A program made the position numbers and the translations under genes. This document shows positions 3,123 through 56,533 of a DNA stretch of 64,000 bases, in pieces (positions within the stretch are counted from its first letter, which is position 1; each line of letters begins with the position of its first letter). The DNA is from Acidimicrobiia bacterium (lineage in GTDB: Bacteria; Actinomycetota; Acidimicrobiia; Spongiisociales; ZC4RG35): contig DATHUP010000049.1 in the NCBI GenBank assembly GCA_035462175.1, positions 52,614-116,613 on the forward strand. The letters are read 5' to 3'. The notes under the pieces were generated by a model. That model saw only the letters and a program-made list of their open reading frames with translations, was not told the origin of the DNA and ran no database searches.

Positions 3123-3138
3123 TGCTCGATCCGACTAC

Positions 3139-3172
3139 CGACTACCGACCACTGAACTACTACGGCAGCCGC
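3139..3172. terminator. putative bidirectional stem-loop terminator between convergent genes
   Basis: actacggcagccgcc-taaa-ggcggcttccgtagt forms a ~14-bp GC-rich stem with one mismatch, between the + strand gene ending at 3122 and rex ending at 3173. Confidence 0.4.
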
Positions 3173-12783: not shown

Positions 12784-12784
12784 G

Positions 12785-17079: not shown

Positions 17080-17119
17080 CGATGTTGATTCTGCCCCACA
17101 ACCGTGAGGTATGGGTCCG

Positions 17120-17166
17120 ATTCTTTATGCAGTCCGTCACGCATACGTGACGCCCTGCATTAGGAA
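17120..17166. promoter_or_regulatory. copy C of the nested palindromic element; candidate operator in the divergent amidohydrolase / nuoE control region
   Basis: gATTCTTTATGCA-gtc-CGTCACG-cata-CGTGACG-ccc-TGCATTAGGAA; 41-87 nt upstream of the amidohydrolase start and 60 nt upstream of the nuoE start. Confidence 0.5.
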
Positions 17167-17225
17167 CGCGGTGTGACCCCCCGGGTTTCGCTCGGGATAG
17201 GGGTGCTACCTAATCTCCGGCCTCG

Positions 17226-17849
17226 ATGAGTCAATGGTCGGAGGCCACTCAGGAGCGCGCCCGGCAGATCATGGCGCGTTATCCGCAGAAGCGGTCGGCG
17301 GTCATGCCGTTGCTCTATCTGGCCATGGCCGAGGAGGGCCATCTCAGCGACGAGGGGATGGAGGAAGTCGGCCGCTGGGTCGGCATCACCCCGGCCCAGG
17401 TGCAGGCAGTGGCCACCTTCTACACGATGTACAAGCGGAGACCGACCGGGAGGTACCTGATCTCGTGTTGCACCTCGATATCCTGCATGCTGCTTGGTGC
17501 TGACGACGTTCTTCACGGGGTCGAGGACGAGTCGGGCGTGCCCCACGGCGAGACCGATCCCGACGGGCTCTTCTCGGTGGAGCACGTCGAGTGCATCGGC
17601 GCCTGCGGGGGAGCGCCTGCGGTCCAGGTCAACTACGAGCTGATCGAGGGAGTGACCCCCGAGAAGGCCAGGGAGCTGGTGAGGTGGCTCGGCAAAGCCC
17701 GCCCCGAAGTGGTCAACGGCGACGAGATGCAGGAGCTGTTCGGCGGGGTTCGCAGCTTCGATTGGGCGATCAGGGAGGAAGACGGGGCGGTTGGCCCCTA
17801 TCCGGCCTTCCAGCCGCTGGGCACGGTGGGAAGCGAGGGCGGCGCTTGA
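17226..17849 (+). CDS. nuoE: NADH-quinone oxidoreductase subunit E
   Basis: 24-kDa subunit, 2Fe-2S motifs (CCTSISC...CIGAC). Confidence 0.9.
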   Translation: MSQWSEATQERARQIMARYPQKRSAVMPLLYLAMAEEGHLSDEGMEEVGRWVGITPAQVQAVATFYTMYKRRPTGRYLISCCTSISCMLLGADDVLHGVEDESGVPHGETDPDGLFSVEHVECIGACGGAPAVQVNYELIEGVTPEKARELVRWLGKARPEVVNGDEMQELFGGVRSFDWAIREEDGAVGPYPAFQPLGTVGSEGGA

Positions 17850-19159
17850 CGACGCCACTCGTTGTCACCAAGCGGATGACCGAGTTCCCCGCCGACTCGC
17901 ACAGCATCGACCGTTACGAGGCAACCGGCGGCTACGAGCAGGCCCGCCGCGCCCTGGGGATGACCCGGGACGAGCTGGTGGAGGAGATCAAGGCCTCGGG
18001 TCTTCTCGGGCGGGGCGGAGCCGCCTTCCCCGCCGGCCTCAAGTGGAGCTTTCTCGCCCCGGCCCGGCCCTCGTTCCTCGTGGTCAACGCCGACGAGTCG
18101 GAGCCGGGCACGTTCAAGGACCGCCAGTTGCTGGAACGAGACCCGCATCAGATGTTGGAGGGGGTGATGATCACCGCCATCGCCAACGAGGCGCACCACG
18201 CTTTCGTCTACATCCGTGGCGAGTACCCGAAGCCGGCTCGCCGGGTCCAGGCCGCAGTCGACGAGGCGTATGCCCGGGGGTATCTGGGAGGGGGGATCTT
18301 CGGCTCGGATTACGACCTGGATGTGATCGTCCACCTCGGAGCCGGCGCCTACATCTGCGGTGAGGAGACCGCCCTGATCAACAGTCTCGAAGGTCTCCGC
18401 GGCGAGCCGCGTCTCAAGCCGCCCTACTTCCCCGCGGCGAAGGGCCTCTACATGCAGCCCACCATCGTCAACAACGTCGAGACGGTGTCCAACCTGCCTC
18501 ACATCCTGGCGATGGGCGCCGAGGCCTACACCCAACTCGGTCACCCGGACGACACCGGGACCTTCCTCATCTCGGTCTCGGGTCATGTCAAGAAGCCGGG
18601 CAACTACGAGCTTCCCCACGGGATCACCTGGCGTCAGCTCATCTTCGACATTGCCGGGGGCATCGCCGGAGACCGGGAGTTGAAAGCGATCATCCCCGGC
18701 GGCGCCTCCGCGCCCTGGTTCGTCCCCGAGATCCACCTCGACGACCGGATCACCAAAGACGTCTGCGCCGAGGCGGGCTCGATGCTCGGGTCGGGTGCCG
18801 TAATCGTGATGGACGAGAACACCTGCATGGTGCGCGCTGCCGAGCGTCTGGTGCGTTTCTTCGCCCACGAGTCGTGCGGCCAATGCACCCCGTGCCGTGA
18901 GGGAACCACATGGATGGAGATGATCCTGCGCCGAATCGAGGAAGGTCAGGGGCGGGCCATCGATCTCGACCTCCTTCTCGACGTCTCCGACAACATCAGC
19001 GTCGGTCTCAACTGGCCCCCGAAGATGACCACCATCTGCCCCCTCGGCCCGTCGGCGGTGTCTCCGATCCTCGCCCTCCGCGACTACTTCCGCGACGAGG
19101 TCCAGGCCCACGTGGAATTGGGCGGATGTCCATTAGAACTGGCGAAGGCTGCAGTATGA
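17846..19159 (+). CDS. nuoF: NADH-quinone oxidoreductase subunit F (start uncertain: TTG 17846 or ATG 17876)
   Basis: 51-kDa subunit; NAD/FMN site GRGGAAFP, Fe-S site ESCGQCTPCREG. Confidence 0.85.
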   Translation: MTTPLVVTKRMTEFPADSHSIDRYEATGGYEQARRALGMTRDELVEEIKASGLLGRGGAAFPAGLKWSFLAPARPSFLVVNADESEPGTFKDRQLLERDPHQMLEGVMITAIANEAHHAFVYIRGEYPKPARRVQAAVDEAYARGYLGGGIFGSDYDLDVIVHLGAGAYICGEETALINSLEGLRGEPRLKPPYFPAAKGLYMQPTIVNNVETVSNLPHILAMGAEAYTQLGHPDDTGTFLISVSGHVKKPGNYELPHGITWRQLIFDIAGGIAGDRELKAIIPGGASAPWFVPEIHLDDRITKDVCAEAGSMLGSGAVIVMDENTCMVRAAERLVRFFAHESCGQCTPCREGTTWMEMILRRIEEGQGRAIDLDLLLDVSDNISVGLNWPPKMTTICPLGPSAVSPILALRDYFRDEVQAHVELGGCPLELAKAAV

Positions 19160-19315
19160 GCCTGACGCGAACCACTTCTGGGGGGACCACTACTTCTGGG
19201 GGGCGACCCCCAGACCCCCGCTCGCTCCGAGCCGTAAGTGCCAAGACATCACGGCGGCCAACCTCAGTGGTCGCGCCGGGCTGTGATCGCGAATGAGGCT
19301 CAAACCGTGAGCGAG

Positions 19316-21742
19316 ATGGGCCAAACGGTCAGCATCACCATCGACGGGGTGGAGCATCGGGTGGCGGCCGGGTCGCTGCTGATCAGGGCGGCCCAGGACA
19401 CCGGGACCTACATCCCCCGTTTCTGCTGGCACGAGCGGATGAAGCCGGTGGGGATGTGCCGGATGTGCCTGGTGGAGGTGGAGGGGCCGCGGGGGCCGAT
19501 GCTGGTCACGGCATGTACCAACGAGGTCGTCGACGGGATGGTGGTCGACACCGGGAACGCCACGGTGAGGAAGGCCCAGGAGGGGGTACTCGAGTTCCTC
19601 CTCGCCAACCACCCCCTCGACTGCCCTGTGTGCGACAAGGGAGGGGAATGCCCGCTTCAGGACCAGGCGTTCTCGCACGGGCCGGGAGAGAGCAGGTTCG
19701 TCGAGATCAAGCGCAACTACGAGAAGCCGATCGCGATCTCGAGCCTGGTCCTCCTCGACCGGGAGCGATGCATTCTCTGCGCTCGCTGCACCCGGTTCTC
19801 CGAAGAGATCAGTGGCGACCCGCTCATCGAGTTCAAGGCGAGGGCCAACATCACCGAGGTCAACACCTTTCCGGACCACCCCTTCGCCTCCTACTTCTCG
19901 GGCAACACCATCCAGATCTGCCCGGTCGGTGCCCTCACCTCGGTTCAGTACAGATTTCGCGCCCGGCCCTGGGACCTGCAGATGGTGGAGAGCTCCGGTC
20001 TCCACGACACCGCCCACCCGCGGGTGTCGGTCCATGCCAGCCAGAACCAGATCCTCCGGCTGGTGGGAGTGGACAACGACGCAACCAACCATGGCTGGCT
20101 CTCCGACAAGGAGCGGTTCGGCTTCGAGTACCTCGGCTCCGAGGAGCGTCTCACCGCACCGCTGGTTCGGAAAGACGGCCGACTGATCGAGGTGGATTGG
20201 GCCGAAGCCCTGGAGCTGGTGGCGGAGAGGATCGGGCGGATCAGGGACGAACACGGGGGTGAGTCGTTTGCAGTGATCGGCGGCGCTCACGGCACCAACG
20301 AGGACGCCTACGCCCTTGCCAAGTTCGCCCGTGTGGTGCTCGGGACCAACAACGTCGACGCCCGGCTCGATGACACGCTCGCATCGCATTTCCTGGCGGC
20401 CACGGTCGATCGAGCCCGGATCGCCGACATCGACACCGCCGACACCATCCTCGTCTGGGGGCCAGACCTGAAAGAAGAGCATCCCACCCTCTACCTGCGG
20501 GTGCGGATGGCGGCGCAAGAGCTCGGCGTCCGGCTGGTCGTGGTCCATCCCCGGGCCACCGGTCTCGACGACCGCGCCACCATCAAGGTCGAGTACCGCC
20601 CCGGGGCGGGCTTCGCCCTCCTCGACGAGATCGCCGAGGGCCGTCACCCCGAGCTGAGTGAGGCCCTCAGCGCAGAGCGGGTCGTGGTCTTCGCCGGGCA
20701 GGCCTCGTTCGCCGATGGTCCCCGGTTGGCCGAGGCGGTGGCGGCATACGTGCGGAGCAAGGCAGGCTCCACCCGCATCCTCCCCCTGGCTCGGAGGGGC
20801 AACCTCTTTGGCGCCCTGGACATGGGCCTCGCCCCCGACCTGCTTCCCGGGCGGGTGGGCGACGACGAGGCGGGCCGGGCGGCCCTCGCCGAAGCGTGGG
20901 GCGAGATCCCGGCGGCCCGGGGCCAGGACACCAAGGGGATGCTCGGAGGGCTGGCTTCGGGGGAGATCAGGTTCCTCCTCCTGGTCGGCTCCGACCCTGT
21001 CCGCGACCTGCCCGACCCGAGACCGGCACTCCCCGCCCTCGAGGGTGCGGAGTCCGTGGTCTCGATCGACCTGTTCCTCAACGACTCCAACCGGGAGGCC
21101 GACGTCATCTTCCCCGCAGCCGGCTTCACGGAAAAGGAGGGGACCGTGACGAACCTCGAGGGGCGGGTGCAGAAGGTGAACATGCTCGCCCCCGGCCCGG
21201 GTCAGACACGACCCGACTGGGCGATCCTGGCCGATCTGGCCGACAGGGCGGGTCGCTCGATCGGTCTTTCCTCCGCGGACACCATCGCCAAGGAGATCTC
21301 CGATCTGGCACCTGTCTACGCCGGGATCACCTGGGACCACCTGGAGTGGGAGGCCAGGGACGGGGCGGTCGTTCCGCTCTCCGGTGTCTCACCGCTCACT
21401 CACATCCCGGTCTCCCTGAAAGGCGACATCGCCCCGTCGGCGGAGTTGACGCTGCATGTGGGGCGGACCCTGTACGACGACGGGGTGATGATGAGGCACA
21501 GCCCCAATCTCCATCCTCTCGCCCCCGGGCCCCTGGCTCATCTCAACCCCGAAGATGCCAAGCGGGCAGGGGCGCTCCATGGTCACACGGTGAGAGTGGT
21601 GACCAAACACGGTGAGGGCGAGTTCTCCGCCGTGCTCGACGAGGGGACCCCGCCCGGCGTGGTCTACGTCCCTTTCAACCAGCCGGGCGCAGCTCCGCTG
21701 GGCACCGACGCCGTGGTCCGGGTAACGACGGTGGGCCGGTGA
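19316..21742 (+). CDS. nuoG: NADH-quinone oxidoreductase subunit G
   Basis: 75-kDa subunit: N-terminal 2Fe-2S/4Fe-4S Cys clusters (CRMCLVEV, CPVCDKGGECPLQD), molybdopterin-like domain; ATG 19316 (GTG 19307 is also in frame). Confidence 0.85.
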   Translation: MGQTVSITIDGVEHRVAAGSLLIRAAQDTGTYIPRFCWHERMKPVGMCRMCLVEVEGPRGPMLVTACTNEVVDGMVVDTGNATVRKAQEGVLEFLLANHPLDCPVCDKGGECPLQDQAFSHGPGESRFVEIKRNYEKPIAISSLVLLDRERCILCARCTRFSEEISGDPLIEFKARANITEVNTFPDHPFASYFSGNTIQICPVGALTSVQYRFRARPWDLQMVESSGLHDTAHPRVSVHASQNQILRLVGVDNDATNHGWLSDKERFGFEYLGSEERLTAPLVRKDGRLIEVDWAEALELVAERIGRIRDEHGGESFAVIGGAHGTNEDAYALAKFARVVLGTNNVDARLDDTLASHFLAATVDRARIADIDTADTILVWGPDLKEEHPTLYLRVRMAAQELGVRLVVVHPRATGLDDRATIKVEYRPGAGFALLDEIAEGRHPELSEALSAERVVVFAGQASFADGPRLAEAVAAYVRSKAGSTRILPLARRGNLFGALDMGLAPDLLPGRVGDDEAGRAALAEAWGEIPAARGQDTKGMLGGLASGEIRFLLLVGSDPVRDLPDPRPALPALEGAESVVSIDLFLNDSNREADVIFPAAGFTEKEGTVTNLEGRVQKVNMLAPGPGQTRPDWAILADLADRAGRSIGLSSADTIAKEISDLAPVYAGITWDHLEWEARDGAVVPLSGVSPLTHIPVSLKGDIAPSAELTLHVGRTLYDDGVMMRHSPNLHPLAPGPLAHLNPEDAKRAGALHGHTVRVVTKHGEGEFSAVLDEGTPPGVVYVPFNQPGAAPLGTDAVVRVTTVGR

Positions 21743-22842
21743 GCGGGGCCCAGTTCTGGATCGTGGTGCTGCGGGTGGTGCTCACGTTCGGCCTGCTGCT
21801 CCTGGTCACACTGCTCAACGTGTGGGCGGAGCGGAAGATCCTGGCCGATATGCAGAGCAGGATCGGGCCGAAACGGGCCGGCCCGTTCGGGATTCTCCAG
21901 ACCGTGGCCGACGGGCTCAAGCTGTTCTTCAAGGAGGCCGTCACCCCGCGCAAGGTCGAGTTGGGCATGTACCTCCTCGCCCCGTTCCTGGCCGTGGTCC
22001 CGGCCTTCCTCATCTTCATGATGGTGCCCTGGGGCAGGCCATTCATGATCGGGGACAACGAGGTCGCGCTGCAGGGAGCCGATCTCAACATCGGCCTGCT
22101 CTTCATCCTGGCCATGTCGTCGCTGGCGGTGTACTCGGTGGTCCTTGCCGGGTGGTCCTCCGGCTCCAAGTACCCCCTCCTCGGCGGGGTGAGGGCGACG
22201 GCCCAGGCGATCTCCTACGAGGCGGCGATGGGCTTGGCCATGGTGGCCGTGGTCATGTTCACCGCCACCCAAGGCGACGGAGGCACGCTCTCCCTGGCCG
22301 AAATCGTCAATCGTCAGGCCGGCACCTGGGGCGATGTGATCCCGGCACTGGAGCCGATCCTCCGCTTCGTCCCGAGATGGAACCTGTTCCCCCAAATCGT
22401 GGCCTTCGTCATCTTCTTCGTGGCCATCGTCGCCGAGACCAACCGCGCCCCGTTCGACCTGGTCGAGGCGGAGCAGGAGATCGTCGGCTTCCACACCGAG
22501 TACTCGGGGATGAGGTTCGCCATGTTCTTCCTCGCCGAATACGTCAACATCTTCTCTATGTGCGCCATCGCCGCCACCCTCTTCCTCGGTGGCTGGAACG
22601 GGCCAACCTTCGAAGGGTCGGTCCCCGGGTTCGTCTCCGCCCTCCTCCCAACGGTGTGGTTCCTGGCCAAGACCTACTTCCTGGTCTTCATCTTCTTCTG
22701 GATCAGAGCCACGCTTCCCCGGCTCCGCTACGACCAGCTGATGCAGGTGGGCTGGAAACGACTCATCCCGGCCGCTCTGGGCTGGCTCGTCGTTTCGGCA
22801 ACTGTCATATCGTTCCGTCAATTCGGTCCACCCTGGAGCTGA
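21739..22842 (+). CDS. nuoH: NADH-quinone oxidoreductase subunit H
   Basis: ND1-like polytopic protein; GTGA overlap with nuoG. Confidence 0.9.
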   Translation: MSGAQFWIVVLRVVLTFGLLLLVTLLNVWAERKILADMQSRIGPKRAGPFGILQTVADGLKLFFKEAVTPRKVELGMYLLAPFLAVVPAFLIFMMVPWGRPFMIGDNEVALQGADLNIGLLFILAMSSLAVYSVVLAGWSSGSKYPLLGGVRATAQAISYEAAMGLAMVAVVMFTATQGDGGTLSLAEIVNRQAGTWGDVIPALEPILRFVPRWNLFPQIVAFVIFFVAIVAETNRAPFDLVEAEQEIVGFHTEYSGMRFAMFFLAEYVNIFSMCAIAATLFLGGWNGPTFEGSVPGFVSALLPTVWFLAKTYFLVFIFFWIRATLPRLRYDQLMQVGWKRLIPAALGWLVVSATVISFRQFGPPWS

Positions 22843-22845
22843 GCA

Positions 22846-23501
22846 TGGGTCTCATAGCAGAGCTGATCAGAGGTCTCCGGGTGACTGGTGGGACGATGCT
22901 CCGCACCATCGCGGGCTCTGGGTTGGTCACCACCGAGTACCCAAAGGAGATGCGGGTCAAGCCGCAGCGCTTCCACGGGCGTCATGTGCTCAACCGCTAC
23001 CCCGACGGCATGGAGAAGTGCATCGGCTGCGAGCTCTGTGCCGGGGCGTGCCCCGCCGACTGCATCTACGTGCGGGGGATGGACAACGACCCGGAGGCCC
23101 CGACCTCGCCGGGAGAGAGATTCGGCTACGTGTACGAGATCAACATGCTCCGTTGCATCTTCTGCGGTCTGTGTGTCGAGGCATGCCCCACCGAGGCGAT
23201 CACCATGACCCATCTCTTCGAGTTCTCCACCACCAACCGCGAGGACGCGGTCTACACCAAAGAGACGCTGCTCATGGAGCGGGACGGGACCGTGCCTCAC
23301 ATGTTCCCCGACGACGAGTTGGCCGATCTCGGCGAGCTCGACACCGCCGACGGGTGGATGCGGGCCACGGCCTCCTCGGGGGTCGCCGCCTACGAGGGGA
23401 CCCTGATGTGGCAGGGCACCCCCGGGCCGGCCGACTGGGCTCCCGAGCCCACCCAGGAGGAGCGAGACCGCAGGAGTGGTGAGGACGAGACCGATGGTTG
23501 A
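22846..23501 (+). CDS. nuoI: NADH-quinone oxidoreductase subunit I (with ~60-aa C-terminal extension)
   Basis: Two 4Fe-4S ferredoxin motifs (CIGCELCAGACP, CIFCGLCVEACP). Confidence 0.85.
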
Positions 23502-24018
23502 GGGCGTCCTCTTCGTCATAGCCGGGCTCGCCGCCCTGGCCGGGGCGGTGACCGTCGTGGTGGCGAGGAACCCGGTCTACTCGGCCGTGGGCCTGCTCGG
23601 CACCTTGTTCTCGGTGGCCGTGCTCTACGTGCTCCAGCTGGCCCACCTCGTGGCCGCGGTCCAGGTGATCGTCTACGCCGGAGCGGTGATGACCTTGTTC
23701 CTCTTCGTGATCATGCTCATCGGCGTGGACAAAGAGGAGACCCGGTCGGAGTCACTCCCGCTGCAGCGGATATGGGTCGGGATGTTGGCCGTGGGGATGA
23801 TCCTCTTCGCCGCCGGCGTCACCCTGTTCGGGGACTTCGAGTGGGTGCCGGCCGCCTCGGCGAGGTTCATCGAGAGCAACACCAACGGCACGATCCAGGC
23901 CATCGCCGAGCCCCTGTTCACCGATTGGGTGCTTGCCTTCGAAGCCACGGCGCTGCTCTTGACCATCGCCGCGGCGGCCGCCGTGGTGCTGGCCCAGTTC
24001 AAGAGAAAGCGATCCTGA
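23494..24018 (+). CDS. nuoJ: NADH-quinone oxidoreductase subunit J
   Basis: ND6-like; overlaps the nuoI end. Confidence 0.8.
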
Positions 24019-24320
24019 TGGTCCCGGTCGACTGGTACATGGGGCTGGCTGCTGCGCTGTTCCTCATCGGCGCCCTCGGCATGTTGCTCAGACGCAACGC
24101 ACTGGTCATGTTCATGTGCATCGAGCTGATGCTCAACGCAGTCAACCTGACCCTCATCTCGGCGGGCCGGGTCATGAACGACATCAACGGGCAGGTGGCG
24201 GTGTTCTTCATCCTGGTGGTTGCCGCCGCCGAGGTGGTGGTCGGCCTGGCCATCATCGTGGCCATCTTCCGCCGGCGCTCTACGGCCTCGGTAGACGAGT
24301 TGAGCGAGATGAGAGGCTGA
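24018..24320 (+). CDS. nuoK: NADH-quinone oxidoreductase subunit K
   Basis: ND4L-like, 100 aa, ATGA-type overlap with nuoJ. Confidence 0.85.
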
Positions 24321-24340
24321 TGATGCTTCGCATCATCAGC

Positions 24341-24413
24341 CGCTACGAGCGACGAGCCACGAGCCATGAGCCAGAAGCTCGTTGCTCGTTGCTCGTTGCT
24401 CGTTGCTCATTGC
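24341..24413. repeat. intercistronic heptamer-periodic hairpin repeat, copy R1 (GAGCNAC arm / GCTCGTT arm)
   Basis: Left arm cgctacgagcgacgagccacgagccatgagc, loop cagaa, right arm (gctcgtt)x4 gctcattgc; preceded by small hairpin tgatgc-ttc-gcatca; lies between nuoK and nuoL. Confidence 0.8.
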
Positions 24414-24426
24414 TGGAGGTCACAAC

Positions 24427-26310
24427 GTGACCGACTATCTCTGGCTGGTCATTGCCCTTCCGCTGGCCGGGTCTCTGTTCTTGCACTTTTTCGGGCGGTA
24501 TGTGCGCGAGCCGCTGAGTGGGTGGCTGGCCTCGGTGGCGATCGGGGGTGCGTTCGTCATCGCTGCTGTGGCGGCTTGGCCCTTCCTCGAGGGAGGTGAG
24601 GCGGCGAGCACGATCGCGCTCTGGGAGTGGATGCCCGCGATCGGGGCGTCATTCGAGCTGTTGTGGGACCCGCTGGCCGCACTGATGACCCTGGTCGTGA
24701 CCGGGGTGGGCACCCTGATCCACGTCTTCGCCATCGGCTACATGCACGGTGACGAGAGGTTCCATCGTTTCTTCACCTACCTCAACCTGTTCGCCGCCTC
24801 CATGCTCACCCTGGTCCTCGCCGGGAACTACGCCATGTTGTTCCTCGGCTGGGAGCTGGTCGGGCTCTGCTCCTACCTGCTCATCGGGTTCTGGTTCACC
24901 CGGCCCACCGCCTCCGCTGCGGCCAAGAAGGCCTTCGTCGTCAACCGGATCGGCGACTTCGGGTTCATGATCGGCTTGATGCTGGTCTTCGCCACCTTCG
25001 GCACGCTCTCCTTCGGCGACGTGTTCGAGAGAGCCGGCGCCGAGATGAGCAGCGGGCTGGCCACGGCCATCGGCCTGCTCTTCCTGCTCGGGGCGGCGGG
25101 CAAGTCGGCTCAGATCCCTCTCTACGTGTGGCTGCCCGACGCCATGGAGGGTCCCACCCCGGTGTCGGCCCTGATCCATGCCGCCACCATGGTCACCGCC
25201 GGCGTCTACGTGATCGCCCGCTCCGCCCCCATCTACGAGTTGACCCCGTTCGCCTCGACGGTGGTGGCCAGCGTCGGGGCCCTCACCGCGATTTGGGCCG
25301 CCTCGATCGCCCTGGCCCAGCGCGACATCAAGCGCGTCCTCGCCTACTCGACCATCTCCCAACTCGGGTTCATGTTCCTCGCAGTGGGCACCGCCGCCTA
25401 TGTGGCCGGAGTCTTCCACCTCATGACCCACGCCTTTTTCAAGGCCCTCCTCTTCCTCGGTGCCGGATCGGTGATCCATGCCATGAGCGACGAGCAGGAC
25501 ATGCACAAGATGGGTGGGTTGCGGCGCAGGATGCCGATCACCGCGGCCACGATGGGGATCGCCTCCCTGGCCCTGGCCGGGATCCCTCCCCTGGCCGGTT
25601 TCTGGTCCAAGGACGAGATCCTCGCCGCGGGTTTCGCCCGGGGCGGCTGGTACTACTTCCTCTGGGTCATCGGGCTGGTCACAGCCCTGCTCACCGCCTT
25701 CTACATCACGAGGTTGTGGGCCCTGGTCTTTCTCGGAGAGCCGCGCTGGGCCGAGGGCGCCCAACCGCACGAATCGCCAAGGGTGATGACACTCCCCCTC
25801 ATCGCATTGGCCGCACTCTCCGTGGTGGGTGGGTTGGTCAACACGCCGTTCCGCCTCACCCTGGAGCACTTCCTCGAGCCAAGCTTCGAGTTGGTCCATC
25901 TGCAGCACGCCCCTGACGACTGGGCGCTCCTGGGGATCTTGGCCGGTCTCTCCACCCTGGCCGCACTCGGCGGCGCCGCGGCTGGGTACCTGGCCTACAA
26001 CCGGCCGCCGGAGAGATGGAGACGGTTCGAGGATTCCTTCCAACCGCTCTGGGGGGCATGGGAGCAGGCGTACGGGGTCGACGATCTCTACGGGAGAGCC
26101 CTGGTCGCGCCCGGCCGGCGACTGGCCGAGATCGGTGCCTTCGACTTCGACGCCAGAGTGGTCGATGGGGCGGTCAACGGTGTGGGCCGCCTGGTCCGGG
26201 ACGTCGGCGAATGGGCCCGCCCCCTCCAGACCGGTTTCGTCCGAAACTACGGAGTGTTGTTCCTCGCAGGTGCCCTCGTGGTCATCACCTGGCTGGTGGC
26301 GGGCGGATGA
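24427..26310 (+). CDS. nuoL: NADH-quinone oxidoreductase subunit L
   Basis: ND5-like antiporter subunit; GTG start preceded by GGAGG (the ORF-track start at 24382 reads through the repeat and is rejected). Confidence 0.85.
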   Translation: MTDYLWLVIALPLAGSLFLHFFGRYVREPLSGWLASVAIGGAFVIAAVAAWPFLEGGEAASTIALWEWMPAIGASFELLWDPLAALMTLVVTGVGTLIHVFAIGYMHGDERFHRFFTYLNLFAASMLTLVLAGNYAMLFLGWELVGLCSYLLIGFWFTRPTASAAAKKAFVVNRIGDFGFMIGLMLVFATFGTLSFGDVFERAGAEMSSGLATAIGLLFLLGAAGKSAQIPLYVWLPDAMEGPTPVSALIHAATMVTAGVYVIARSAPIYELTPFASTVVASVGALTAIWAASIALAQRDIKRVLAYSTISQLGFMFLAVGTAAYVAGVFHLMTHAFFKALLFLGAGSVIHAMSDEQDMHKMGGLRRRMPITAATMGIASLALAGIPPLAGFWSKDEILAAGFARGGWYYFLWVIGLVTALLTAFYITRLWALVFLGEPRWAEGAQPHESPRVMTLPLIALAALSVVGGLVNTPFRLTLEHFLEPSFELVHLQHAPDDWALLGILAGLSTLAALGGAAAGYLAYNRPPERWRRFEDSFQPLWGAWEQAYGVDDLYGRALVAPGRRLAEIGAFDFDARVVDGAVNGVGRLVRDVGEWARPLQTGFVRNYGVLFLAGALVVITWLVAGG

Positions 26311-26321
26311 GCAAGCTCATC

Positions 26322-26392
26322 CGCCGTTCTACGTTTTACGTGTTACGTCCTACGTACGACGTAGGGCGTAGGACGTATGACGGGGCGACCGG
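26322..26392. repeat. intercistronic heptamer-periodic hairpin, TACG-type variant
   Basis: ttctacg ttttacg tgttacg tcctacg / tacgacg tagggcg taggacg tatgacg; arms complementary (tcctacg vs cgtagga); between nuoL and nuoM. Confidence 0.7.
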
Positions 26393-26401
26393 AGGTCGCC
26401 C

Positions 26402-27931
26402 ATGTTGACCGCCCTCGTGCTGGTGCCTGCGGTCAGCGCCTTGATCGTGGCGTTGGTGCCTTCGCGGAGGAGGGAGGTCCATCTCCCGCTCGGGATCGCC
26501 CTGTCGGTGATGCCGCTCGCCCTCGCCGGCTATCTGTTCTGGGTATTCGAGCCGGCGGCAGGGTTCCAATATGTCGACCGGGTGGCCTGGTACGAGCCAT
26601 GGGGGATCGACTGGTTCCTCGGTGTCGACGGGATCTCCCTGCCGATGGTCGCCCTTACCACCCTCTTCGTTCCCATCGCCCTCGCCGCCTCGACCTCGAT
26701 CACCACCCGGACCAAGGAGTTCGTGGTCTTCACGTTGTTGCTCGAGGCCGGTCTGATTGGGGCCTTCCTCGCCCTCGACCTGTTCCTCTTCTTCGTCTTC
26801 TTCGAGGCGATGCTGATCCCGATGTACTTCATCATCGGAATCTGGGGCTCGGAGCGTCGGGTCTACGCCGCGGTCAAGTTCTTCATCTACACCGCTTTCG
26901 GCTCCGCCCTGCTGCTGGCCGCGATCATCGGTCTCGCCCTGATCCATGCCACCGAGGAAGGTTTTGCCTCCTTCGCCCTGACCGACCTGGTCGGGCTCGA
27001 CCTCTCCGTCGGCGCGGAACGATGGCTCTTCGCCGCCTTCGCCATCGCCTTTGCCATCAAGGTCCCGCTCTTCCCGTTCCACACCTGGCTCCCCGATGCC
27101 CATGTCGAGGCGCCGACGGCCGGCTCGGTCCTGCTCGCCGCAGTCCTCCTGAAGCTGGGCACCTACGGCCTGCTTCGCTTCAACCTGGCGCTCTTCCCGG
27201 AGACCTCGGTCGACGCGGTTCCGATCATGGCCGCCCTCGCGGTGATCGGGATCATCTACGGGGCGGTGGTCGCCATCGTCCAGCCTGATCTCAAGAAGCT
27301 CGTCGCCTACTCCTCGGTCAGCCATCTCGGCTTCATCGTGCTCGGCACCTTCGCCCTGACCTCGGGGGGTTTACAGGGCGCGGTGATCCAGAACGTGAAC
27401 CACGGGCTGACCACCGGTGCCCTCTTCCTCCTGGTCGGGATGATCTACGACCGGAGACACACCAAGAAGATCGCCGACTTCGGAGGTCTGCAGAAGACAG
27501 TCCCCATGCTCGCCGGGTTCTTCCTCTTCATGGCTTTCGCCTCGATCGGGCTCCCCGGCCTGAATGGGTTCGTCGGGGAGTTCCTGGTCCTCATCGGGAG
27601 CTTCCCCACCCTCCCCGTCCCGACCGTCCTCGCCGCCTCCGGGGTGGTGCTCGCCGCCATCTACCTGCTCTGGGCCTACGAACGGGTCTTCACCGGTGTC
27701 CCCGACAACGAGGAGAACAAGGTCCTGTCCGACCTCTCACCCCGTGAGATCGCGGTCCTCGCACCCTTGGCCGTGTTGGTGCTCGTGATCGGGCTCTATC
27801 CCAACCTGCTCCTCGACAAGATCACGCCTTCGACCGAGGCCGTGCTCGACCACATCGAGGCGCAGACCGACTTCGTCGTTCCCGAACCGGGACGGATCGA
27901 CGAGGTCGTGATGATCGGAGGCGAAGGATGA
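26402..27931 (+). CDS. nuoM: NADH-quinone oxidoreductase subunit M
   Basis: ND4-like antiporter subunit. Confidence 0.9.
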   Translation: MLTALVLVPAVSALIVALVPSRRREVHLPLGIALSVMPLALAGYLFWVFEPAAGFQYVDRVAWYEPWGIDWFLGVDGISLPMVALTTLFVPIALAASTSITTRTKEFVVFTLLLEAGLIGAFLALDLFLFFVFFEAMLIPMYFIIGIWGSERRVYAAVKFFIYTAFGSALLLAAIIGLALIHATEEGFASFALTDLVGLDLSVGAERWLFAAFAIAFAIKVPLFPFHTWLPDAHVEAPTAGSVLLAAVLLKLGTYGLLRFNLALFPETSVDAVPIMAALAVIGIIYGAVVAIVQPDLKKLVAYSSVSHLGFIVLGTFALTSGGLQGAVIQNVNHGLTTGALFLLVGMIYDRRHTKKIADFGGLQKTVPMLAGFFLFMAFASIGLPGLNGFVGEFLVLIGSFPTLPVPTVLAASGVVLAAIYLLWAYERVFTGVPDNEENKVLSDLSPREIAVLAPLAVLVLVIGLYPNLLLDKITPSTEAVLDHIEAQTDFVVPEPGRIDEVVMIGGEG

Positions 27932-29388
27932 TCGCCACGCCCGAGATCTCCTGGATCGCCATCGCCCCCGACCTGGCCCTCGCCGTCGGTGCTGCCCTGG
28001 TGCTGCTGGTCGACGTGCAATGGAAGCCGCGGCCCGTGGTGCTGGGATGGGTTGTCGGGGCCACCCTGGCCGTGGTGGCCGGTTTGACCATCCTGCAATG
28101 GCTGATCGGGACCGACGCCGTGGCCGCGGGGGACAGCGCGAGCCTGATCGCGTTCTCCGGGATGATCACGATGGACGGGTTCACCGTCTTCGCCCGTCTC
28201 GCATTGATCGCTGCGACGGCACTGGGTGTGACCGGCGGCTGGCGCTTCGTGGTCGGGATGGGCCGTCGCGGGGCGGAGGCCCTGGCCCTCGTCTTGCTGG
28301 CGACGGCCGGCTTCTCACTGATGGTCGCCTCCAACAACCTGGTCATGATGTTCCTCGGTCTGGAAGTCGGCTCGATCTCCCTCTACGTGCTCGCCGGGCT
28401 TGCCCGGGAGAGAAGGGAATCTGAGGAGGCGGCGATCAAGTACTTCCTGCTCGGGTCCTTTGCCTCCGCCCTGTTCGTGTACGGGGTGGCCCTGATCTAC
28501 GCCGGCACCCGGCAATTCCAGATCCTCGAGATCCGGCACTACCTGGACAACTTCATCGTGACCAACCCGGCGGTTATCTACGTCGGGCTCGGGCTCGTGA
28601 TCGCCGGTCTCGGGTTCAAGGTGTCGGCCGCCCCCTTCCACGCCTGGGCCCCCGACGTCTATCAGGGGGCGCCGGCCGGACTGGTCGGATACCTGGCCGC
28701 GGTGGCGAAGATCGCCGGATTCGCCGCCATAGCCCGGGTCCTGCTCACCGCTCTCCCCGAACTGGACGCCGCCTGGATGCCGGTTGTGGCCGGGATCTCG
28801 GTCGTGTCCATGACTCTCGGCTCGTTGCTCGCCCTCGTCCAAGGGGACGTCCGCCGGCTACTCGCCTACTCCGGAGTGGCCCACGCCGGGTTCATCATGA
28901 CCGGCGTCGTCGGCGGGTCGACGGAGGCGATCCTGTTCTATCTGGCCATCTACTCCATCCAGCTGCTCGGCGCCTTCGCCGTGGTGTCGGTGGTGAGCGG
29001 CCCCGACGGGGCCGGGTCGGCTCTGGATCGGTATCGCGGGCTGGGTCGGCGAAGCCCTCTCCTCGCCTCGTCCTTCGCCGTCCTCCTCCTGGGGATGGGG
29101 GGTCTGCCCCTGACCTCGGGGTTCGTGGCCAAGTTCGGCGTGTTCACCGAGGCGTGGGCCCGGGGATACGAATGGCTGGTCATTGTGGCCGTGGTGGCAT
29201 CGGTGGTCGCCTTTGCCTTCTATATCCGGGTCATCGTCGTGATGTACATGGACGACGCCGGGGACGAGGAGTCGTTGAGGGTCGGGCCCGAGGGTTGGGT
29301 GTTGGCGGTGGCTGTCGGAACGACGATTCTCTGGGGCATCTTCCCGTCGTCGCTTCTCGATCTGGCAGCTGATGCGCTTCCGCTATAG
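27928..29388 (+). CDS. nuoN: NADH-quinone oxidoreductase subunit N
   Basis: ND2-like antiporter subunit; ATGA overlap with nuoM. Confidence 0.9.
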   Translation: MIATPEISWIAIAPDLALAVGAALVLLVDVQWKPRPVVLGWVVGATLAVVAGLTILQWLIGTDAVAAGDSASLIAFSGMITMDGFTVFARLALIAATALGVTGGWRFVVGMGRRGAEALALVLLATAGFSLMVASNNLVMMFLGLEVGSISLYVLAGLARERRESEEAAIKYFLLGSFASALFVYGVALIYAGTRQFQILEIRHYLDNFIVTNPAVIYVGLGLVIAGLGFKVSAAPFHAWAPDVYQGAPAGLVGYLAAVAKIAGFAAIARVLLTALPELDAAWMPVVAGISVVSMTLGSLLALVQGDVRRLLAYSGVAHAGFIMTGVVGGSTEAILFYLAIYSIQLLGAFAVVSVVSGPDGAGSALDRYRGLGRRSPLLASSFAVLLLGMGGLPLTSGFVAKFGVFTEAWARGYEWLVIVAVVASVVAFAFYIRVIVVMYMDDAGDEESLRVGPEGWVLAVAVGTTILWGIFPSSLLDLAADALPL

Positions 29389-30535
29389 GGCTCTACCGGG
29401 CACCGGCCTCGTCGTCGTCTTCCTTCTCGCCTCGGCCGGGCCCGCCCTCGCCGCGGAGACGGCGTCGTCTGAGATCGTCGTCATCAGAGAGAACGACACG
29501 GTCGCGGAGGACCTCTACGCCTCCGGAGTTCGCATCATTGTCGAGGGAGTGGTGGACGGTGATCTGGTCGCCTTCGCCGCCGAGGACGTAGTCATCACCG
29601 GAGAGGTGACCGGGAGTGTGCTGGCGGTCGCACCGACGGTCACGATCGACGGCGACGTCGGGGGGTCGGCCCGCGTGTCTGCTGGGAATCTCTCGGTGCC
29701 CGGGTCCGTGGGTGTGGATCTGGTGGCCGCCGCGCTCTCCGTCGAGCTCGACCAGGGCTCGGTGATCGAAGGTGACGTTCTGGTCTGGGCGTTGGAGATG
29801 ACATCGGAAGGTACCATCGGAGCCGACCTGGAGGGATCCCAGCGCAGCCTCTATTTGGCTGGCATCGTGGAGGGCGACGTCGAAGTCAGTGTCAATCGTC
29901 TCGTCGTTACGGGCCCGCTCCAGGTGACAGGGGACATGGGTTATCGCTCGCCCTCCGAGGGGGATGGGTTGGATCAGGCCGACGTGGGAGGGGTGGTTGC
30001 GCGTAAGAGCCCGCTGCCTCCCAACATCCGGGTCCGCGCTCTCGGTCTCTTGGCCCGCTTCTTGGTGGTTGTCGCCCTCACCGCGACGGCGCTGCTGGTG
30101 GGGTGGGGATGGCCGAAACGGACCAGGCTGGCGGCTGAGCGGGCTCGGGCCCAGACGTGGCGTGCCTTCGGATATGGCGCCGTCGTGGTGCTCTCGCCGC
30201 TCCTCCTTGCTGCTGTGGCAGCCGTTGTCGCCGGTCTCGCCCCCGCCGCCGCCAGCCTGCCGCTCGTGGCCATCTTCGGGCCGCTGGTCATTGCCACCGC
30301 GGGTGTGGTCCTCGTGCTCAGCCTCGTGGCAGGCGTGCCCGCAGTCCTCGCCGCCGGCCGCGCCCTTCCCAGTGATCTCGGCATGTTCGGCGCGATCGTC
30401 GCCGGGTCGATCCTGGCCGGCGTGGTCTGGCTCATCCCGATCGTGGGCTGGATCGTCCCACTGTTGGTCCTGCCCACCGGGGTGGGGGCTTGGCTGCTCA
30501 GCTTCCGAGAGAGTCAGGAAACGCAGACAGGCTGA
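29372..30535 (+). CDS. bactofilin-like (polymer-forming cytoskeletal, DUF583-type beta-helix) protein with C-terminal polytopic membrane domain
   Basis: Signal/TM at N-terminus; repetitive G-D/S-V-x-G-x-V beta-strand repeats (VIEGDV, VEGDVEVSV, VTGPLQVTGD); 4 C-terminal TM helices; overlaps the nuoN end by 17 nt. Confidence 0.4.
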   Translation: MRFRYRALPGTGLVVVFLLASAGPALAAETASSEIVVIRENDTVAEDLYASGVRIIVEGVVDGDLVAFAAEDVVITGEVTGSVLAVAPTVTIDGDVGGSARVSAGNLSVPGSVGVDLVAAALSVELDQGSVIEGDVLVWALEMTSEGTIGADLEGSQRSLYLAGIVEGDVEVSVNRLVVTGPLQVTGDMGYRSPSEGDGLDQADVGGVVARKSPLPPNIRVRALGLLARFLVVVALTATALLVGWGWPKRTRLAAERARAQTWRAFGYGAVVVLSPLLLAAVAAVVAGLAPAAASLPLVAIFGPLVIATAGVVLVLSLVAGVPAVLAAGRALPSDLGMFGAIVAGSILAGVVWLIPIVGWIVPLLVLPTGVGAWLLSFRESQETQTG

Positions 30536-30542
30536 TCCACGA

Positions 30543-32927
30543 TCAGATACCCGGGTTGACGCCCAGGTGGGCGACCTCGACCGTCCCCTCGAACCGCTTG
30601 ACCGGTGGCCGGGAACGGTCGGCGATCACTGTGAACACCCCGGCGTGGACCAGGTCCTGTGACGAGGCGCCGACCATGACCTCGATCTCCCCGGGCTCGA
30701 CCACGTAGCTCAGGTGGCGATCGTAGAAGCCGAGCTGGCCCACCGGCAGCCGGAAGGTGACTCGCTTCGAGGCTCCGGCCTCCACCTCGACCCGGACGAA
30801 GCCCTTCAGCTCCAGCACCGGCCGGGTCACGCTGGCCTGCGGGTCGCGCACATAGAGCTGGACCACTTCGTCGCCATCCCGCTGACCGGTGTTGACCACC
30901 TCGATCGCGACGCTCACCTCGTCGTTCCAGGTCACGAGGTCGGGGGTCACCGACGGCGAGCTGAGCTCGAAGGTGGTGTAGCTCAGACCGTGGCCGAACG
31001 GGTACAGCGGGGCCACCGGGCCGTCGACGTAGTCGCCCTTCCAATAGGATCTCCCACCGGACACCTTGTGCCCGTAGTAGACCGGGATCTGGCCGACGGT
31101 GCGAGGGTGGGTGATGGGGAGCTTGCCCCCCGGGTTCACCTCTCCGGTCAACACGTCGACGATCGCAGCGGCACCCTCCTGACCGGGGAGCCAGGCGGCG
31201 ACCACCGCCGCGCAACTCTCATGGGCCCAAACGCTGCCGGTGGGTCGCCCGGCAACCAGAACCAGCACCACTGGGGTACCCGTCTTGACCACTTCCGCCA
31301 GCAGTGCCTCCTGCACCCCGGGAAGATCCAGCGAGTGCCGGTCCCTGCTCTCACCGCTGGTGCAGTCTTCGGTCAGGCCGGACTTGTCGCCGAGAACGAG
31401 GACCGCCACATCGGAGTCGGCGGCCAGGGCCACGGCCTCGGCGAAACCTTCGGTCGAGTCCTCGCTGATCCCACACCCCATGGCGAGGCGCACTTTGTCC
31501 CCAAAGCGGCCCTCCAGCGCATCGAAGACGGTGGGGAAGCGAATCGTCGGCCCACCGAGGTCGGCCTCGTCGGGAAGGGGAATCGAGAACACGTTGCCGT
31601 GGTCCCGCATCTCGAGGAGCGACTCGACATGGGCCGGATAGGTGTAGTCGCCGAAGAGGTTGCGGGCCTCATGTGCGTTGGGGCCGATGACGGCGATCGA
31701 CTCCAGCTTCGGTGACAACGGCAGGATCCCATCGTTGCGCAGCAGAACGATGCTCTTCCGGGCCAGTCGCCCCGCCAGCTCCAGCTGGAAGGGAGTGCTC
31801 ATCACCGATAGGGCCACGTCGGGATCGATGAAAGGATGTTCGAAGAGCCCGAGCTCGAGCTTGGCGCGGAGGACCCGGCTCACCGCGTCGTCCAGCGTGG
31901 CCTCGGTCAACCTGCCCGATTCCAGTGCCTGAAGCAGCGGCTGTCCGTAACAGTCGGTCGAGGGGAGCTCCACGTCGAGACCGGCTTCGAGTGCGATCGA
32001 GGCCGCCTCGGGGGCGTCCTCGGCCAGATGGTGGTAGTCGCTGAGCTGGCGCACCGCGAAGTAGTCGGAGACCACGCAACCCTGGAACTCCCACGACCGG
32101 CGCAGGATCTCGGTGAGCAGCTCCCGGTCGGCGGCTCCGGGGACGCCGTCGATCTCGTGGTAGCCGTTCATGACGGATCGAAGCCCGGCGAGCTTGACCG
32201 CTGCCTCGAAGGGGTGGAGATAGACCTCGCGCAACTCGCGCGGCGGGATGTGGGCAGGTGCCCAGTTGAGCCCACCTTCGGAGGCCCCGTATCCGACGAA
32301 GTGCTTCCCGGTGGCTACAACACCGTTGGTCGGCGAGTTTCCCTGCAGACCCCGGACCATGGCCAAGCCCATCTGGGCCACGAGATGGGGGTCCTCGCCG
32401 AATGTCTCCTCGGTCCGTCCCCACCTCGGGTCGCGGCAGACGTCGAGGACCGGGGACAGCCCCTGATGGGCGCCCACCGCTCTCATCTGGACCCGGACAA
32501 CGTCGGCCATCGCCTCGGCCAGCCCCGGGTCCCATGTGCTGGCCACACCGATGGCCTGGGGAAACACGGTGGACTGGCTGGCCATCAGACCGGAACAGAC
32601 TTCCTCGTGGACGATGGCGGGGATCCCGAGCCGGGTTCCCTCCAGGAGGAACCGCTGGATCTCGTTGGCGAGGCGGGCCGCCTCTGCCGCCCCGAGGCTG
32701 CTGGCACCGGAGATTCTGGTCACCTGGCCGAGTCCCCGTCGGAGCAAGGGCGCCGCCTTCGACTCGGACAGACGGTCGCCCTCGGTCAGCTGGAACACCC
32801 AGACGCTGCCCAGTTGGGCCACCTTCTCCTCGCGTGTCATCCGGCGCAACAGGTCTGCGGCGCGCTCGTCCGCCCCCCGAGACGGGTCGCGATACGGCGG
32901 CGCCTGCTCCAGCGGGACGGTGCTCAT
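30543..32927 (-). CDS. glycoside hydrolase family 3 beta-glucosidase (BglX-like, with FnIII-like C-terminal domain)
   Basis: GH3 N- and C-terminal domain motifs (GFVVSDY..., KHFVGYGASEGG). Confidence 0.85.
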   Translation of the reverse strand: MSTVPLEQAPPYRDPSRGADERAADLLRRMTREEKVAQLGSVWVFQLTEGDRLSESKAAPLLRRGLGQVTRISGASSLGAAEAARLANEIQRFLLEGTRLGIPAIVHEEVCSGLMASQSTVFPQAIGVASTWDPGLAEAMADVVRVQMRAVGAHQGLSPVLDVCRDPRWGRTEETFGEDPHLVAQMGLAMVRGLQGNSPTNGVVATGKHFVGYGASEGGLNWAPAHIPPRELREVYLHPFEAAVKLAGLRSVMNGYHEIDGVPGAADRELLTEILRRSWEFQGCVVSDYFAVRQLSDYHHLAEDAPEAASIALEAGLDVELPSTDCYGQPLLQALESGRLTEATLDDAVSRVLRAKLELGLFEHPFIDPDVALSVMSTPFQLELAGRLARKSIVLLRNDGILPLSPKLESIAVIGPNAHEARNLFGDYTYPAHVESLLEMRDHGNVFSIPLPDEADLGGPTIRFPTVFDALEGRFGDKVRLAMGCGISEDSTEGFAEAVALAADSDVAVLVLGDKSGLTEDCTSGESRDRHSLDLPGVQEALLAEVVKTGTPVVLVLVAGRPTGSVWAHESCAAVVAAWLPGQEGAAAIVDVLTGEVNPGGKLPITHPRTVGQIPVYYGHKVSGGRSYWKGDYVDGPVAPLYPFGHGLSYTTFELSSPSVTPDLVTWNDEVSVAIEVVNTGQRDGDEVVQLYVRDPQASVTRPVLELKGFVRVEVEAGASKRVTFRLPVGQLGFYDRHLSYVVEPGEIEVMVGASSQDLVHAGVFTVIADRSRPPVKRFEGTVEVAHLGVNPGI

Positions 32928-55229: not shown

Positions 55230-55230
55230 C

Positions 55231-56421: not shown

Positions 56422-56439
56422 GTGCTCGCTTCGCTGATT

Positions 56440-56518: not shown

Positions 56519-56533
56519 CAGGAAGGACACCCA

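Follow-up and report, generated by a model that had tools for sequence, protein, structure and literature searches.

Heptanucleotide-repeat hairpins in putative coupling reading frames between complex I genes of an Acidimicrobiia bacterium

Heptanucleotide repeats have been known since 2007 as the commonest long simple repeat in bacteria, and their function is not agreed. They are over-represented in prokaryotes (Mrazek 2007, to the extent summarised in PMC4679880), and the described families include the STRR of heterocystous cyanobacteria and TAACTGA of Beggiatoaceae (PMC4679880), together with GGGAATC of Xanthomonas and GGGGAYT of Nostoc (PMC4692102). The Xanthomonas heptads occasionally occur as convergent pairs able to form stem-loops (PMC4692102), while the TAACTGA heptad cycles through three frames, its stop content limiting the sites at which it occurs (PMC4679880). 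A second related system is the mycobacterial interspersed repetitive unit (MIRU), within which an open reading frame (ORF) is joined to the adjacent gene by coupling at -4 nt (Supply et al. 1997, in the outline given by PMC12548453). Here we describe the spacer between the complex I genes nuoL and nuoM in 64,000 nucleotides of DNA from an Acidimicrobiia bacterium (assembly GCA_035462175.1, contig DATHUP010000049.1, positions 52,614 to 116,613; hereafter the window). The spacer holds a hairpin made of 7-nt units, and judging from its sequence we lean towards the view that it is a coupling linker, translated and gated by a hairpin, whose building blocks are heptanucleotide simple-sequence repeats.

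The element lies at 26311-26401 of the window, which is exactly the 91-nt interval between the nuoL stop codon (TGA, 26308-26310) and the nuoM start codon (ATG, 26402), in agreement with the intercistronic placement given in a preliminary description of this DNA. The heptamers named in that description are also present and form a hairpin. The 5′ arm (26327-26354, plus strand) comprises four NNNTACG units, TTCTACG (26327-33), TTTTACG (26334-40), TGTTACG (26341-47) and TCCTACG (26348-54). The 3′ arm (26360-26382, plus strand) comprises three CGTANNN units (26360-26380), CGTAGGG (26360-66), CGTAGGA (26367-73) and CGTATGA (26374-80), followed by CG. Tandem Repeats Finder reported period-7 arrays at 26325-26355 and 26352-26382 with 4.4 copies per arm, and an inverted-repeat finder paired the two arrays with each other; with four and three full units, each arm contains at least three head-to-tail copies. 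RNA folding yielded a 51-nt stem-loop (26332-26382, plus strand) with 13 unbroken inner pairs, the loop ACG (26356-26358) and single mismatches every 6 to 7 nt in the outer stem. In the folding check that the preliminary description had proposed, the whole spacer reached -59.7 kcal/mol (z = -7.1) and none of 200 shuffled sequences equalled it. With DNA parameters the structure was identical (z = -4.5).

The heptad stem-loop is flanked on each side by a smaller hairpin, giving three successive RNA hairpins in the spacer. The first is a perfect 11-bp inverted repeat over the nuoL stop codon (GGCGGATGAGC / GCTCATCCGCC, 2-nt loop, 26302-26325, plus strand); RNA folding pairs 7 bp of it (26305-26322), the inverted-repeat finder extending it to the full length. 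Its 5′ arm takes in both the nuoL stop codon and the ATG of a mini-ORF that overlaps it (ATGA, 26307-26310). A stop hairpin of like design is present at the first nuoK-nuoL junction of the window (GCTGATGATGC/GCATCATCAGC, 24316-24340), and the left flank GCAAGCTCAT is common to the nuoL-nuoM element and its orthologue L014 (L-numbers denote the loci compared). The last is an 8-bp hairpin over the Shine-Dalgarno sequence of nuoM (GGGCGACC-GGA-GGTCGCCC, 26383-26401, plus strand), supported by both the inverted repeat and the fold, which contains GGAGG (26391-26395) and ends one base 5′ of the ATG. Across six orthologous junctions 89.6% of the cells in this hairpin were paired, compared with 23-52% in slid controls, and compensatory changes were found in three of its eight pairs.

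Frame analysis identified a mini-ORF (MSKLIRRSTFYVLRPTYDVGRRTYDGATGGRPC, 26307-26408, plus strand) that bridges the spacer with 33 codons and a stop. It begins at an ATG overlapping the nuoL TGA and ends at a TGA (26406-26408) 2 nt past the nuoM ATG codon, so that mini-ORF and nuoM overlap by 7 nt. The mini-ORF frame is free of stops over the 91-nt spacer, and the other two frames contain TAG at 26362 and 26369. The stop/start overlap of translationally coupled pairs is therefore found twice, at nuoL/mini-ORF and at mini-ORF/nuoM. The preliminary description had offered an RNA structure or a slipped-strand mechanism as alternatives; the hairpin it proposed is real, but it missed this third layer, an open frame coupled to both neighbours.

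The window contains seven heptad hairpins, every one of them between complex I genes, and all seven share this arrangement. The spacers measure 106, 91, 112, 103, 100, 109 and 130 nt, each 1 mod 3, an outcome with a chance probability of (1/3)^7 = 5e-4; this is the length required for an ORF opening in ATGA to close in NTGA. In all seven the mini-ORF frame is one base behind the upstream gene, and its start codon and the upstream stop overlap, five times as ATGA and once each as TGATG and ATGGTGA, in genes where A occupies only 4.8% of third codon positions. The mini-ORF frame has 0 stops across the seven spacers, and the other two frames together have nine. Its first stop then occurs 1-10 nt after the downstream start in 7/7, falling on the start itself as GTGA in four and otherwise 4, 7 or 10 nt past its first base. 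A +1-frame stop lies within 10 nt of a random nuo codon in 12.7% of cases, and seven out of seven would be expected by chance with a probability of 5e-7. Every element thus contains an ORF overlapping the termini of both flanking genes.

The frame rule extends to relatives. We surveyed the long spacers at membrane-arm nuo junctions in the window and in 683 kb of Acidimicrobiia sequence (43 loci, each centred on nuoM). Among 43 long spacers 34 were 1 mod 3 (19/23 with heptads and 15/20 without), and the upstream stop stood in the context ATGA, GTGA or TTGA in 36. The nuoL-nuoM spacers ranged from 46 to 379 nt, with length differences that were nearly all multiples of 3, as in coding DNA. When the same script was applied to 37 nuo loci from other phyla, the frame closed early and no more than 22 of the 58 long spacers were 1 mod 3. 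Because this control was negative, the signal is an artefact neither of the method nor of nuo operons generally.

These observations are consistent with the following mechanism. A ribosome ending nuoL at its TGA would restart on the overlapping ATG, read the 33-codon mini-ORF through the heptad hairpin and the Shine-Dalgarno-sequestering hairpin, and stop at the TGA just within nuoM, beside the exposed ribosome-binding site and start codon. The predicted consequence is that nuoM translation follows nuoL translation. With no ribosome arriving from upstream, the three hairpins (stop/start, heptad stem and Shine-Dalgarno) would hold the linker closed, also to free ribosomes. The open frame, the 1 mod 3 rule and the ATGA/GTGA overlaps are properties of the DNA as read, as are the hairpins, the avoidance of stops and the concentration in nuo operons considered below. 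They suggest that ribosomes translate the mini-ORF and that its translation may couple expression of the two genes; the strength of the hairpin may itself have been selected. Replication slippage in 7-nt steps, together with inverted copying, would generate the repeats of the heptad stem and drive their turnover, and only stop-free units would persist on the sense strand, forcing one mismatch per heptad wherever the complement reads TAA, TAG or TGA. A slippage origin, already raised in the preliminary description, fits the reported over-representation of heptanucleotides in prokaryotes (Mrazek 2007, as condensed in PMC4679880).

The distribution of stop triplets fits the presence of such a frame. 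Each 7-nt unit moves the frame on by one, so that successive copies in an array are read in all three frames in turn, and since three copies present every triplet in every frame, arrays in a translated frame must be free of TAA, TAG and TGA on the sense strand. The nuo arrays contained 20 stop triplets on the sense strand vs 69 on the antisense strand, and about 12 heptamer families had antisense stops vs about two with sense stops, these units not being independent. Sense stops do occur in an array of L037 (13128), which is sited after the last gene of the operon. In 19 hairpins the consensus units of the two arms were complementary at 5-6 of 7 positions. Their 3′ arms contained 10 stop triplets, compared with 39 had they been perfect complements, and their 5′ arms 4 compared with 17. 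For example, AGTTCAC would call for GTGAACT in the opposite arm, which instead reads GTCAACT, and GCTACGA would call for TCGTAGC, where the arm reads TCGTTGC. At nuoL-nuoM there are only three 3′ units, hence one per frame, and the TAG triplets at 26362 and 26369 fall in the nuoL and nuoM frames. The third unit reads CGTATG rather than CGTAGG, placing TAT (26376-26378) in the mini-ORF frame at the cost of a G-U pair. The mismatches mostly sit where perfect pairing would create a stop codon. The periodic bulges of the preliminary description do exist as mismatches, and they are largely explained by stop-codon avoidance in a frame-cycling repeat.

The mini-ORF and its stop avoidance distinguish this mechanism from that of an untranslated stem-loop. 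In E. coli operons, REP elements confer stability on the mRNA segments upstream of them. By analogy, the hairpins could act as barriers to 3′-5′ exonucleases or as RNase III sites in the long nuo transcript, the mini-ORF being coincidental. The stems are indeed very stable, intercistronic and uniform in orientation, they lack a T-run and a scan found no terminator-like site, all of which such a role would accommodate. It would leave unexplained the 1 mod 3 rule, the ATGA/GTGA overlaps, the stop at the downstream start and the avoidance of sense stops, and the sense strand shows no excess of G-U pairs (20 vs 15 in the sense and antisense folds of the seven spacers). We therefore regard it as unlikely. 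An intrinsic terminator or attenuator was rejected, as the nuoL-nuoM stem is followed by GGGGCGACC with no T-run; a terminator and promoter scan of 17000-31000 found no site at the elements there, and a search of the whole window against Rfam 15 at the gathering score matched no family. Programmed -1 frameshifting or ribosome hopping at the nuoL stop was likewise rejected, since GGC GGA TGA contains no slippery heptamer and the downstream genes have their own ribosome-binding site and start.

Several observations weigh against a hairpin-gated coupling linker. The mini-ORFs were left uncalled by gene callers. The other two frames were also stop-free in 6 of 14 cases; open frames are frequent in G+C-rich DNA, and an open frame by itself therefore counts for little. 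Nor is a relay strictly required, given that each downstream gene is equipped with a GGAGG of its own. The frame rule is broken in some heptad spacers (L014, L005, and the K-L spacers of L023 and L016), and orthologous junctions are only partly independent samples. A mismatch was unnecessary for stop avoidance in 6 of the 19 hairpins; as these are not explained by the reading frame, another force probably also acts on the mismatches, for example selection against perfect palindromes. Folding of sense and antisense RNA showed no consistent bias, four elements being more stable in the sense and three in the antisense direction. Since the two energies are similar, the large stem gives no independent proof of acting as RNA. 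Finally, a nuoL-nuoM spacer is missing from the closest relatives, L001 and L035, whose NuoM is 86% identical, and the element is therefore dispensable.

The similar stability of the two strands, together with the significant DNA hairpin, would be compatible with a role at the level of DNA. The element could be an array of binding sites for a regulator, a nucleoid protein or gyrase, or it could form a cruciform taking up supercoils in a membrane-protein operon under heavy transcription. There is a precedent in Geobacter metallireducens, where paired tandem sites have been proposed to bind global regulators or IHF/HU. We consider such a role very unlikely here: the heptamers differ by junction and species, contrary to what a single sequence-specific protein would require, and a DNA-level role would not yield strand-specific frame and stop-codon signatures.

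The six sister elements, all on the plus strand, bear out the claim that the same 7-nt architecture occurs elsewhere in the window. In cluster 1 (nuoEFGHIJKLMN, 17271-29388), the nuoK-nuoL element has a mini-ORF at 24320-24430, running from the ATG in TGATG to the TGA in GTGA at the nuoL start (24427), and a hairpin at 24341-24417 with units (NNCGAGC)4 / (GCTCGTT)5. The other five lie in cluster 2 (nuoABCDHIJKLMN, from 53751 onward). At nuoD-nuoH the mini-ORF (56418-56546; hairpin 56440-56516) extends from ATGA to a TGA 10 nt beyond the GTG at 56534, and at nuoI-nuoJ (58032-58142; hairpin 58055-58125) from ATGA to GTGA (start 58139). The nuoJ-nuoK mini-ORF (58687-58800; hairpin 58690-58771) extends from ATGA to a TGA 7 nt beyond the ATG at 58791. 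At nuoK-nuoL (59090-59209; hairpin 59116-59198) it extends from ATGGTGA to GTGA (start 59206), and at nuoM-nuoN (62868-63005; hairpin 62880-62957) from ATGA to GTGA (start 63002). The elements thus occupy K-L and L-M in cluster 1 and D-H, I-J, J-K, K-L and M-N in cluster 2, gene positions being those called on the matching public contig. All seven fall outside the called nuo genes, though within uncalled mini-ORFs, and all seven linkers were more structured than shuffled sequences (z from -2.4 to -6.7). The six sister elements share one orientation and an invariant core CGAGC/GCTCG, compared with TACG/CGTA at nuoL-nuoM, and the loop AGAGCGCG is common to three of them. The nuoL-nuoM element is thus distinct in its core, as had been stated, but less so in full, since the commonest unit of the other six, GCTACGA, also includes TACG.

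Period 7 dominates the repeats of the window. A self-similarity scan of the 64 kb (24-nt window, at least 80% self-match, lags 2-15) returned 10 segments at lag 7, two at lag 14 and none at the other lags; a more sensitive setting returned nine segments at period 7 and one at period 6. The element is therefore not a single occurrence without periodicity elsewhere, a result that would have spoken against a shared architecture. Only one period-7 array, a short (CCGACTA)3 (3130-3158), lies outside the nuo clusters, right after a stop codon and between convergent genes; a separate hairpin, CTACTACGGCAGCCGCC..GGCGGCTTCCGTAGTA, comes after it.

Heptads occupy nearly all long spacers of both clusters, the exception being the nuoF-nuoG spacer (19160-19306, 147 nt, 0 mod 3), which was considered as a further element and rejected because it contains no heptads. 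This region (19156-19310) carries a direct repeat, ACCACTTCTGGGGGG and ACCACTACTTCTGGGGGG, and the spacer may hold two relay mini-ORFs, from ATG 19156 to TGA 19282 and from ATG 19291 to a TGA overlapping the GTG at 19307. Complex I is also unusually split in this genome: nuoABCD (11364-14134) is followed by three minus-strand genes and then by nuoEFGHIJKLMN, and the second cluster (53751-64000) is without nuoEFG, so that the membrane-arm genes H-N are present twice.

The NuoM of the window reaches at most 87% identity with proteins of uncultured Acidimicrobiia. Its relatives bear on the main alternative, in which the arrays are selfish or neutral repeats. Heptads would then arise by polymerase slippage, their arms would be inverted by template switching, they would persist in nuo linkers only through the purging of variants that break coupling, and the hairpin itself would be useless; a translated linker is granted even so. 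The turnover of the arrays is what this explanation would predict. At nuoL-nuoM the relatives fall into two groups, with no spacer or with a spacer, and the presence of arrays varies among close relatives. The heptamers at this one junction are unrelated from species to species: CAGCGTT in the 5′ arm and AACGGTC in the 3′ arm of L014, TTTTACG and ACGTACC in L023, AGTTCAC and AACTGTC in L024, CCCGCTA and GGCGGGA in L036, AGTCTCC and GCGACTG in L037, and CCAGTAT and TTACTGG in L043. The flanks are conserved, with the stop-hairpin sequence kept in L014 and the Shine-Dalgarno hairpin in L003. As the heptamers differ while the flanks are kept, the heptad core turns over fast inside a conserved frame. 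The constancy of periodicity and placement with unrelated heptamers, noted at first for the window, therefore also holds at nuoL-nuoM of other Acidimicrobiia. L003 even has two adjacent arrays that barely pair (spacer z = 0.14), again as expected of repeats without a purpose.

The genomic distribution is harder to reconcile with neutrality. Period 7 accounted for 39 segments in the 43 Acidimicrobiia loci, with at most 10 for any other period. Within annotated nuo spans lay 37 of these, the other two being just upstream of partially annotated nuoI/nuoJ, and none was found in about 300 kb of flanking DNA, which includes unconstrained intergenic sequence. Counting the array-bearing loci together with the window, there were about 32 junction elements in nuo (128 kb) and one outside (flanks, 113 kb). 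All Acidimicrobiia nuo heptad arrays were located from nuoH onward (nuoH-N junctions). The complementarity of the arms in the 19 hairpins is also unexpected for neutral repeats, as is the structure of linkers without detectable heptads: most linkers of relatives, including these, were more stable than shuffled sequences, although a few were not. Among these linkers the K-L spacer of L003 reached z = -8.4, and it also has weak heptads.

The homologous nuoL-nuoM linkers of L037 (9856-9985) and L043 (3074-3225) share the loop AGAAGACCCRCAACAGAATTCGGGAAACGG, and every 5′ unit differs between them by one base (TCTCCAG vs TATCCAG). In L043 a new outer 3′ array (CTGGTTA) restores pairing. The pair shows, at the level of sequence comparison, concerted evolution of the units within an array, as neutral repeats would undergo, and a compensatory C-G to A-T change with the position of the mismatch kept, which neutral repeats would not require. 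Taken together, the concentration in nuo, the complementarity of the arms and this compensatory change suggest some selection on pairing, and we judge a purely neutral origin possible but rather doubtful.

Several further arrays are of note. In L036 (501-1461), the arrays before nuoI, (GGAGGCG)3 and (GGCGACT)4, are the reverse complements of those after the conserved part of nuoI, (AGTCTCC)4 and (CCTCCCG)4, and the nuoI frame continues through about 60 extra codons. Heptad arrays are also present in nuo operons of other phyla (L046, L065, L072 and L077). In L072 (2635-2802), from Geomesophilobacter sediminis, a nuoF-nuoG heptad hairpin, (GTTCGAC)5 ... (GTCGAAC)3, occurs without a bridging open frame; heptad hairpins thus exist in nuo operons outside Acidimicrobiia without the coupling signature. 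A metagenome scan for GCTCGTT returned 120 loci, most of them simple direct arrays, in DNA of many taxa and of 31-73% G+C. This wide occurrence, like the status of heptads as the commonest long repeat unit across prokaryotes, is what neutral slippage would produce. Only one of the 120 adjoined nuo genes (L127, 1258-1278, at nuoJ-nuoK of a 52% G+C organism unrelated to the window), which indicates that the concentration in nuo is specific to the clade and not to the heptamer. Gene context of the 120 loci was assessed by stop-to-stop frames, which proved too noisy in G+C-rich DNA and was not used. In many unrelated metagenome contigs (L093, L103, L113, L123, L131, L136, L155 and L156) the GCTCGTT array abuts a reverse-complemented ribosome-binding site and start. 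Read as mRNA, those contigs carry (AACGAGC)n directly 5′ of a Shine-Dalgarno sequence and ATG, resembling the Beggiatoaceae TAACTGA repeats.

A unit length that is not a multiple of 3 also invites the idea of a phase-variation switch: adding or removing one heptad (7 = 1 mod 3) would change the frame of the mini-ORF and thereby turn expression on or off downstream. Consistent with this idea, the K-L spacer of L016 (2 mod 3) is in frame from ATGA into nuoL, and the nuoI frame of L036 continues through its arrays. Copy number nevertheless appeared stable. The window differed from ENA ERZ27272640 contig k141_368896 by 27 substitutions and a 1047-bp insertion, and none of the seven heptad elements contained a substitution or indel; two Logan contigs from another run agreed, with no copy-number difference in three elements of one of them. 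Although these three assemblies are near-identical (0.04-0.14% difference), their identical copy numbers indicate that the arrays are not hypervariable, and the copy-number variation between strains that the preliminary description had thought worth checking was not seen among them. Complex I, moreover, is a housekeeping enzyme and an improbable target for such a switch, which we consider exceedingly unlikely. Heptad turnover is thus real but slow, the arrays being unchanged between assemblies and completely different between species. The 1047-bp segment (window 7882-8928), missing from the otherwise 99.9% identical k141_368896, has similar ends (GGTTGCAACGAT / CGTTGCAACGATTG) and a minus-strand ORF, is insertion-sequence-like and appears to be a polymorphic insertion-sequence insertion.

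A hairpin-gated, translated linker, if correct, would mean that operon spacers of 90-200 nt can stay translationally coupled through a relay ORF, and that the genetic code, not structure, can dictate mismatches in an RNA or DNA palindrome. It would also point to a special expression arrangement for the complex I membrane subunits in this clade. More speculatively, and with considerable doubt, we suggest that this Acidimicrobiia clade might use relay mini-ORFs to enforce sequential one-to-one translation of these subunits. In such a scheme 33-45 codons plus unwinding of the stem might impose a timed delay between polytopic membrane proteins, heptanucleotide repeats might offer a fast-evolving means to build or tune the gate, and the periodic mismatches might be marks left directly by the genetic code in an RNA stem. 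The nuo elements provide a concrete, testable setting for heptads, as hairpins in tiny linking frames that are constrained by frame and stops. For annotators they carry a caution, since operon repeats labelled 'intergenic' may be translated. A literature search found no account of heptad hairpins in nuo operons or of their concentration there, nor of heptanucleotide repeats or hairpins inside coupling ORFs.

Among described systems, classes 1-3 of Geobacter metallireducens resemble the nuo elements in consisting of two runs of 3-5 tandem hepta- or octanucleotide units, one run per strand, with variable spacing between them; some of these sites lie between operon genes (proB-proA) (PMC2700814). 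They differ in that they are read as sites for global regulators or IHF/HU, follow one genome-wide consensus per class and have no reported frame constraint (PMC2700814). REP/BIME and the GTAG/CGTC-tagged REP elements are likewise imperfect intercistronic palindromes forming stable, non-terminator mRNA stem-loops, but they measure 20-40 nt, lack 7-nt periodicity and exist as hundreds of near-identical copies mobilised by RAYT (PMC3733652), none of which was observed here within the approximately 83 kb of this genome examined. No RAYT gene was among the genes called there, and the six elements with a common CGAGC core, three of them also with a common loop AGAGCGCG, all lay in nuo.

Classical translational coupling similarly involves ATGA/GTGA overlaps and a Shine-Dalgarno hairpin opened by the upstream ribosome (reviewed in PMC12548453). 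It joins two real genes directly, whereas here a non-conserved mini-ORF of 33-45 codons and a large hairpin would act as a putative relay. Ogata and colleagues reportedly argued in 2000 that Rickettsia palindromic elements are tolerated since they lie in an open frame and are translated. Those elements are said to reside inside functional protein genes, to be conserved over 100-150 bp and to lack 7-nt periodicity.

By unit length, copy number and intergenic habit, the nuo arrays belong to the heptanucleotide long simple-sequence repeats, with which they share tandem 7-nt units in 3-6 copies and 7 nt as the dominant repeat period of the genome. The known families are genome-wide, with mostly one heptamer per genome and mostly direct arrays, whereas the nuo arrays use many heptamers, nearly always in inverted pairs, concentrated in a single operon and inside a doubly coupled ORF of conserved frame. 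The MIRU, as far as PMC12548453 outlines it, is also actinobacterial, lies between operon genes in one orientation and contains a small ORF overlapping its neighbours (-4 nt, NTGA type), and coupling survives its insertion thanks to that ORF, as proposed here. MIRU units, by the same outline, are direct, conserved and non-palindromic and measure about 40-100 bp; the nuo elements have a 7-nt unit, inverted hairpin arrays, a sequence specific to each site and no evident MIRU homology. The nuo heptad element is thus not a MIRU, though its logic matches.

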